Source: Escherichia coli (GTDB lineage: Bacteria > Pseudomonadota > Gammaproteobacteria > Enterobacterales > Enterobacteriaceae). Taken from it: DNA of 212 nt. Numbering within the stretch: position 1 is the first letter of the stretch; every line of letters starts with the position of its first letter. The stretch lies in the NCBI RefSeq assembly GCF_003334255.1, contig NZ_QOWU01000281.1; one strand, given 5' to 3'. This document shows positions 1 to 212 of the stretch, one piece after another. A program made the translations under genes and the position numbers. The notes under the pieces were generated by a model. That model saw only the letters and a program-made list of their open reading frames with translations, did no database searches and was not told the origin of the DNA.

Positions 1-22
1 AAAAACGAGTATTTTTAGTCAT
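1..22 (-). CDS. IS3-family transposase OrfA (N-terminal helix-turn-helix subunit), 5' end only: start codon plus six codons, continuing beyond the window
   Basis: Minus-strand ATG at 22-20 followed by ACT AAA AAT ACT CGT TTT encodes M-T-K-N-T-R-F. This matches the recalled N-terminus of IS629/IS1203 OrfA (MTKNTRFSPEVRQ...). The start is preceded by a GAGG SD with a 7-nt spacer. Confidence 0.8.
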
Positions 23-34
23 CCTGTTTACCTC
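23..34 (-). promoter_or_regulatory. Ribosome-binding site for orfA
   Basis: The minus strand reads GAGGTAAACAGG immediately 5' of the ATG. GAGG lies at plus-strand positions 31-34, 7 nt from the start codon, and a second AGG directly abuts the ATG. Confidence 0.6.
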
Positions 35-51
35 TTTCTCAGGAAGTTTAG

Positions 52-76
52 TCTCCAGGATTCCCGGGGCGGTTCA
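52..76 (-). repeat. Left terminal inverted repeat (IRL) of the IS element; outer boundary at position 76, inner boundary approximate
   Basis: The outermost bases on the minus strand are TGAACCGCCCCGGGAATCCTGGAGA. IS3-family elements carry imperfect terminal IRs of roughly 25-40 bp beginning 5'-TG. The inner limit cannot be set without the right end (IRR), which is outside the window. Confidence 0.7.
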
Positions 77-208
77 ACCGTGTGGCTGTCACTTAGTCTG
101 GCGGCTATCGTGAACCGTTCAGCGAGTCGGACATTAAGAGCGCGGTTGTAGATTCAATTGGTCAACGCAACAGTTATGTGAAAACATGGGGTTGCGGAGG
201 TTTTTTGA
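77..208. other. DNA flanking the IS insertion; apparently non-coding, identity unknown
   Basis: Plus-strand stops at 94, 111, 135, 149, 179 and 206 interrupt two of three frames. The remaining frame (97-212) has no ATG and no SD-associated start. The minus strand also carries multiple stops. I do not recognise the locus. Confidence 0.5.
196..200 (+). promoter_or_regulatory. Putative Shine-Dalgarno sequence (GGAGG) for a downstream plus-strand gene
   Basis: A perfect GGAGG core lies 8 nt upstream of the ATG at 209-211, which is canonical spacing. Confidence 0.35.
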
Positions 209-212
209 ATGA
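209..212 (+). CDS. Possible start of an unidentified plus-strand CDS running off the 3' end of the window (only ATG plus 1 nt visible)
   Basis: ATG at 209-211 sits 8 nt after GGAGG, and an in-frame TGA at 206-208 lies immediately upstream, so an ORF would begin fresh here. The call rests only on SD and start-codon geometry; there is no coding sequence to assess. Confidence 0.3.

Follow-up and report, generated by a model that had tools for sequence, protein, structure and literature searches.

A 212-bp stretch of Escherichia coli DNA very probably made of three stacked insertion sequences

The 212 nucleotides of Escherichia coli DNA analyzed here (the window) carry the end of an insertion sequence (IS) beside 136 bases of other sequence. 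Whether that insertion is biologically meaningful depends on the identity of those bases, positions 77–212. The preliminary description of the window, made from the sequence alone, treated them as a single flank and offered several options: an ordinary intergenic region, plasmid DNA or part of another degraded element. The BLASTN search and context inspection that it proposed gave a clear answer, namely an IS3-family transposase next to IS30.

We are close to certain that positions 1–212 comprise three stacked insertion sequences: the end of an IS1203-type element, a remnant of an IS911-like element and the left end of IS30 (Table 1). Since many database records contain the flank with 100% identity (E = 3e-64 to 9e-65), it is not chance sequence. 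It consists of a 70 bp remnant of a transposase gene followed by the first 66 bp of IS30. The single flank of the preliminary description is thus real, and its left border at 76/77 was correctly drawn: the inverted repeat (IR) of the IS1203-type element ends at window position 76. However, the flank has two parts, and that description missed the second element border at 146/147, where local alignment places the start of IS30.

Table 1. Features of the window and of the IS30 target site within the IS911-like element.
Feature	Position in window	Strand	Evidence
IS1203/IS629-type IS3-family left end	1–76	−	100% over 76 bp to many 'IS3 family transposase' copies
IS1203-type terminal IR, 25 nt, TGAACCGCCCCGGGAATCCTGGAGA on the minus strand	52–76	−	Repeat arms of L012
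IS1203-type orfA start, 7 codons (MTKNTRF), ATG at 22→20	within 1–76	−	
IS911-related IS3-family remnant, 70 bp, element coordinates 412→343	77–146	−	100% to the intact L004 copy
orfA 3' end in the remnant, last 13 codons, TALLMSDSLNGSR then stop			
orfB start in the remnant, −1 frame, RALNVRLAERFTIAARLSDSHT			
GT dinucleotide, IS30 target, one copy of the 2-bp duplication	145–146		L005, L003a, L014
26-bp IS30 target site in the IS911-like element, ATTAAGAGCGCGGTAGCCTTTTTTAA			
IS30 left end: 26-nt left IR (IRL) at 147–172, leader, transposase ATG at 209–211	147–212	+	

Identity of the three elements

The right-hand part of the flank, which the preliminary description had not placed, is a recognizable IS30 left end with its IR and transposase start codon. 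All 66 visible bases agree with the left ends that the annotation of E. coli K-12 MG1655 gives for IS30A and IS30D (100% identity), including the insI start codon and the 26-nt IRL. A full-length copy is present in locus L002 (6071–7291), where IS30 starts at the base equivalent to window 147. That copy is 1,221 bp long and bounded by 26-nt IRs (6071–6096 and 7266–7291; 88% complementary), of which the window contains the left end only. It encodes a single DDE transposase of the IS30 type (L002 6133–7284), which scores 276.5 bits on the NCBIfam model NF033563 for the IS30 family (cut-off 80) and to which the window contributes only ATGA (209–212).

The left-hand element reads, on the minus strand, from the terminal IR through the 5' leader into the first codons of orfA. 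A full element of this type lies at 1267–2576 of locus L012 (1,310 bp), with 25-nt IR arms that a repeat search found to be 92% complementary (1267–1291 and 2552–2576). Window 1–76 corresponds to L012 2501–2576, and window 52–76 matches the opposite IR arm at 92%. From the L012 IR coordinates, positions 52–76 are therefore the IR and position 76 is the final base of the element. Aligned over all 1,310 bp, the L012 element shows 96.1% identity with a copy to which PGAP gives the name 'IS3-like element IS1203 family transposase'. Its length of 1,310 bp, IRs of about 25 nt and high identity to a named IS1203 are those of the IS1203/IS629 group, of which the window shows the first 76 bp only. The element resembles IS1203 and IS629 of E. 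coli O157:H7 and Shigella in length (1,310 bp), in its 25-nt IRs and in the orfA start MTKNTRF; a further likeness is that close copies are annotated with the ALIL frameshift pseudoknot. In contrast, window 1–76 is only 97–98% identical to the O157 copies, not 100%, and the records that match it exactly carry just the label 'IS3 family transposase', not IS1203.

Between these two ends lies the remnant of a third element, as the preliminary description had suggested among its options: positions 77–146 are 100% identical to an intact IS911-like copy in locus L004. The intact copy at L004 2354–2425 matches window 75–146 at 100%, and the local alignment ends exactly at 146. The whole element spans L004 1510–2767 (1,258 bp) and sits within a phage tail assembly gene. 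It has 26-nt IRs (TGTAGTGG...CCACTACA) and is surrounded by a 3-bp target duplication, ATC. Its orfA is in frame 1 from position 73 (C-terminal end ...ILKKATALLMSDSLNGSR, then stop), its orfB is in frame 3 (−1 relative to orfA), and the slippery heptamer A AAA AAG occupies positions 333–339 in the orfA frame; the PGAP annotation is 'programmed frameshift'. The coding strand from coordinate 413 on reads ...TGTCAGCCTGTGTTCTGC. The element thus shows the properties of the IS3 family: a DDE (rve) core, TG...CA IR ends, 3-bp duplications, and an orfB placed −1 to orfA (frame 0) with an A AAA AAG site of the kind that yields an OrfAB transposase. More than 2,000 E. coli records contain it at an identity of at least 99%; its surroundings there are unrelated to one another and include cpdB, tssF, phage tail genes and plasmids.

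The remnant follows directly on the A AAA AAG frameshift site and covers the changeover from orfA to orfB. IS30 has severed it from the slippery site and orfA, and the IS1203-type element has severed it from the remaining orfB. On plasmids that do not have the IS1203-type insertion, the remnant sequence extends leftwards. For example, the minus strand of L002 holds a single 302-codon open frame that spans the remnant and reaches the IS30 junction; it scores 303 bits on the NCBIfam model NF033516 for IS3 family transposases (cut-off 160). Plasmid pEcoFMU073332b (L001, about 5845–5910) carries a different IS3-family element in the same orfB remnant; its transposase lies at 4312–5844 on the minus strand, and the element stops some 95 bp left of the point at which the IS1203-type element is inserted in the window.

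Judged against the K-12 copies IS911A and IS911B, the host of the remnant is best regarded as a relative of IS911 and not as IS911 itself. It is 66–88% identical to these copies in the alignable parts, which falls short of near-identity; with IS911A, identity is about 88% over 41–67 bp beside the junction and 66–81% over the other aligned parts. The IRs of the host element resemble those of IS911, and its orfA shares the end ...ILKKATALLMSDSLN, which we take to be typical of IS911-type elements. A likeness to ISEc31 was also found. For the copy of the IS911-like element in L003a, the PGAP label is 'IS3-like element ISEc31 family transposase', and its name derives from that label. This copy has IS30 at the same site and agrees with window 82–212 at 96% identity; over the 916-bp orfB part, identity is 92%.

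An Rfam model matches the intact element outside the window. The model isrC 'Hfq binding RNA' (RF01387) aligns to L004 2577–2699 on the minus strand (150 bits, E = 8e-38); the match covers the full model and lies over the orfA start. The RF01387 model seems to coincide with IS3-family transposase sequence.

Other scans of the window returned nothing beyond the three elements. No Rfam family matched anywhere in the window at E ≤ 1, and this includes the ALIL frameshift pseudoknot, which was expected as possible in the remnant. The RNA fold of the remnant had no extra stability relative to shuffles (z = 0.71) and so gives no sign that a frameshift-stimulating structure was kept in the 70 bases. 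A scan of the window for promoters and terminators found none, and the window contains no host gene. The only open reading frame of at least 20 amino acids in the window (23 amino acids, 80–151, plus strand, GTG start) was rejected as spurious; it lies on the strand opposite the orfB remnant and terminates within the IS30 IR.

These identities bear on the option of ordinary single-copy DNA beside an IS, whether intergenic or from a plasmid backbone. Many of the 100% matches are indeed plasmid-borne, and some have no PLSDB feature beneath them. Yet on the same records the matched stretch carries the RefSeq annotation 'IS3 family transposase / IS30-like element IS30 family transposase', the flank stretch is in frame with an IS3-family orfB, and the flank exists in multiple copies, both chromosomal and plasmid-borne, with unrelated surroundings. 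The intergenic or backbone reading is refuted and retains practically no probability: positions 77–146 are coding sequence of an IS3-family element on the opposite strand.

Recurrent insertion of IS30 at one dinucleotide

The uninterrupted target in the IS911-like element reads ...GAGCGCGGT^AGCCTTTTTT..., and the bases right after the insertion point (^) are AGCC. In L005, L003a and L014, GT is present on both flanks of IS30 (in L005 at 2427–2428 and 3650–3651); the window displays one copy. The same dinucleotide, with the same GT duplication, is occupied in L014 by an IS30 in the orientation opposite to that of L005. In L003a, IS30 sits at the same site in a diverged copy of the element (about 8% over the orfB part). 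Likewise, in K-12 (locus L015) IS30A lies at the homologous [AC] of IS911A (270539–270540 and 271762–271763), and IS30D links an IS911B half to an IS600 half at equivalent sites. The IS species with IS30 at this site therefore include the host element studied here, K-12 IS911 and, at the equivalent site, IS600.

The nested architecture and insertion point of the window are also those of IS911A::IS30A and IS911B::IS30D in K-12 (insN / insI / insO). As in the window, IS30A is inserted at [AC] four bases past TTAAAAAAGGCT in the frameshift window and is accompanied by a 2-bp duplication. The two differ in orientation: the IRL of K-12 IS30A points toward the orfA half, whereas that of the IS30 in the window points toward the orfB half.

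In PMC9333248, IS30 is described as generating a 2-bp target duplication and preferring nearly palindromic hot spots, and the legend of Fig. 3A mentions IS30A interrupting IS911. The GT duplication around IS30 agrees with the 2-bp duplication stated there. Both the duplication and the use of a preferred site are seen at this locus, where the same position is struck in both orientations. The junction between remnant and IS30 is a known kind of event, and the site behaves as an IS30 hot spot. A match of the target to the lambda LHS hot spot was considered and rejected. Out of about 350 alignments, the best one has its centre on the published site, which is weakly supportive, but it gave only 15/26 identities and the self-complementarity of the target was only 12/26, too weak for a consensus match.

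The remnant–IS30 junction is widespread. Counting records that cover at least 80% of positions 77–212, 245 genomes (252 records) among 5,426 complete ones of E. coli carry it without change, as do 66 plasmid records, the latter bearing out the earlier suggestion of plasmid DNA. It occurs in at least six different neighbourhoods. The orientation seen in the window (orientation A) was found in those 245 E. coli genomes and the opposite one (orientation B) in 501. By record counts, IS30 holds the site in about one third of the E. coli records that contain orfB of the host element.

It is possible, though we consider it rather doubtful, that this spread goes back to one ancestral IS30 insertion, after which the resulting 2.48-kb composite (IS911-like::IS30) moved in trans or by recombination. 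Across many contexts, junctions in orientation A agree in all of their 136 bp (100% identity), and some composites have kept both outer ends with a 3-bp duplication (AAT in L007, TAC in L003a), which is compatible with transposition as a unit. However, both IS30 orientations exist, each with a clean GT duplication, and the same dinucleotide was struck in the diverged copy and likewise in IS911A of K-12 (about 80–88% identical in alignable parts). Taken together, the two orientations, the diverged copy and K-12 IS911A imply at least three or four independent IS30 events. Repeated use of a hot spot and movement of the composite are not mutually exclusive, and the target duplications around the composite do not discriminate between them. 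In addition to hot-spot reuse, the junction may owe part of its spread to the composite moving as a unit.

The IS1203-type insertion and a proposed order of events

The IS1203-type element separates coordinate 412 of the IS911-like element from coordinate 413. It lies 70 bp away from IS30 and has the same orientation as the remnant. Similarity to the uninterrupted target begins at window 75–77, with a 2-nt ambiguity ('CA'). Of the IS1203-type element, only one end, with one side of its target site, lies in the window. The exact junction between this element and the remnant is absent from complete E. coli genomes and PLSDB plasmids, and exact scans found 0 matches to it in JGI metagenome contigs (40-mer) and in GTDB representative genomes (26-mer). 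Likewise, the whole window is found as a contiguous piece in no record among the complete E. coli genomes or PLSDB plasmids; the best whole-window match, H1, covers 81% in two pieces that lie 610 bp apart in a different arrangement. Among the sequences searched, the window is the only one in which the junction is seen.

IS1203-type copies occur elsewhere in the same IS911-like element. One lies at about coordinate 785 with a 3–4 bp duplication (L013 818–2127) and another at 850 (L003 3767–5076). The architecture of the window therefore recurs in complete genomes, with differing break points.

These observations also bear on whether the junction at 76/77 could be an assembly chimera between repeats with no real insertion behind it. 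The junction is missing from every collection searched, and the window is only 212 bp long with both ends inside multicopy insertion sequences, as in short-read contigs. Nevertheless, the position of the break is exactly the final base of the IR, which is expected of transposition but not of a random chimera, and the nests at about 785 in L013 and at 850 in L003 are comparable and real. We consider a chimera very unlikely; real transposition is much more probable, since the break coincides with the terminal base of the IR.

On the basis of a real insertion, a sequence of events can be proposed. IS30 would first have entered the 1,258-bp IS911-like element at its preferred dinucleotide, four bases past A AAA AAG. 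An insertion at this distance from the slippery heptamer separates orfA and the slippery site from orfB, and would thereby have inactivated the transposase of the IS911-like element. An IS1203/IS629-type element would later have inserted 70 bp deeper into orfB, in the orientation of the remnant. We infer this order by parsimony, because the IS30 junction is widespread and the IS1203-type junction was found nowhere else in the collections searched. By the same reasoning, the IS1203-type insertion appears to be recent and private to the source strain, and the IS911-like copy was most likely already inactivated when it arrived.

Significance of the nested elements

The flank at 77–212 has no function of its own. 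The sole functional sequence within it is the IS30 end, which provides the IR that the IS30 transposase binds and the beginning of the gene for this transposase. What the IS1203-type element struck was another insertion sequence; no host gene, regulatory region or unknown system was hit. We infer that its insertion was neutral and not biologically meaningful, because the sole gene struck is a transposase gene that IS30 also cuts. The preliminary description had judged that nothing in the window required a novel system, and we concur, as all its parts are known insertion sequences. The flank is already-known nested IS debris of a kind common on E. coli plasmids and genomic islands, and no new system is present.

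Nests of one insertion sequence within another are routine on E. coli and Shigella plasmids and genomic islands, and they are a common cause of tiny contigs in short-read assemblies, as here. Positions 1 and 212 of the window both fall within multicopy insertion sequences, and the distinctive sequence between them amounts to only 70 bp. Ends bounded by repeats are the pattern expected of a short-read contig, which may explain the lack of wider context.

The result is of little consequence in itself, and it settles the question left by the first reading of the window. It is of wider interest only in that IS30 recurs at a single dinucleotide in the frameshift windows of IS911-type elements. This recurrence fits documented IS30 hot-spot behavior and is already visible in the K-12 reference annotation. 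It seems reasonably probable that the IS911-type frameshift window (TTAAAAAAGGCT[AC]CGCGCTCTT) is a conserved natural hot spot for IS30, through which IS30 would systematically inactivate several IS species. If so, one insertion sequence would be preying on others.
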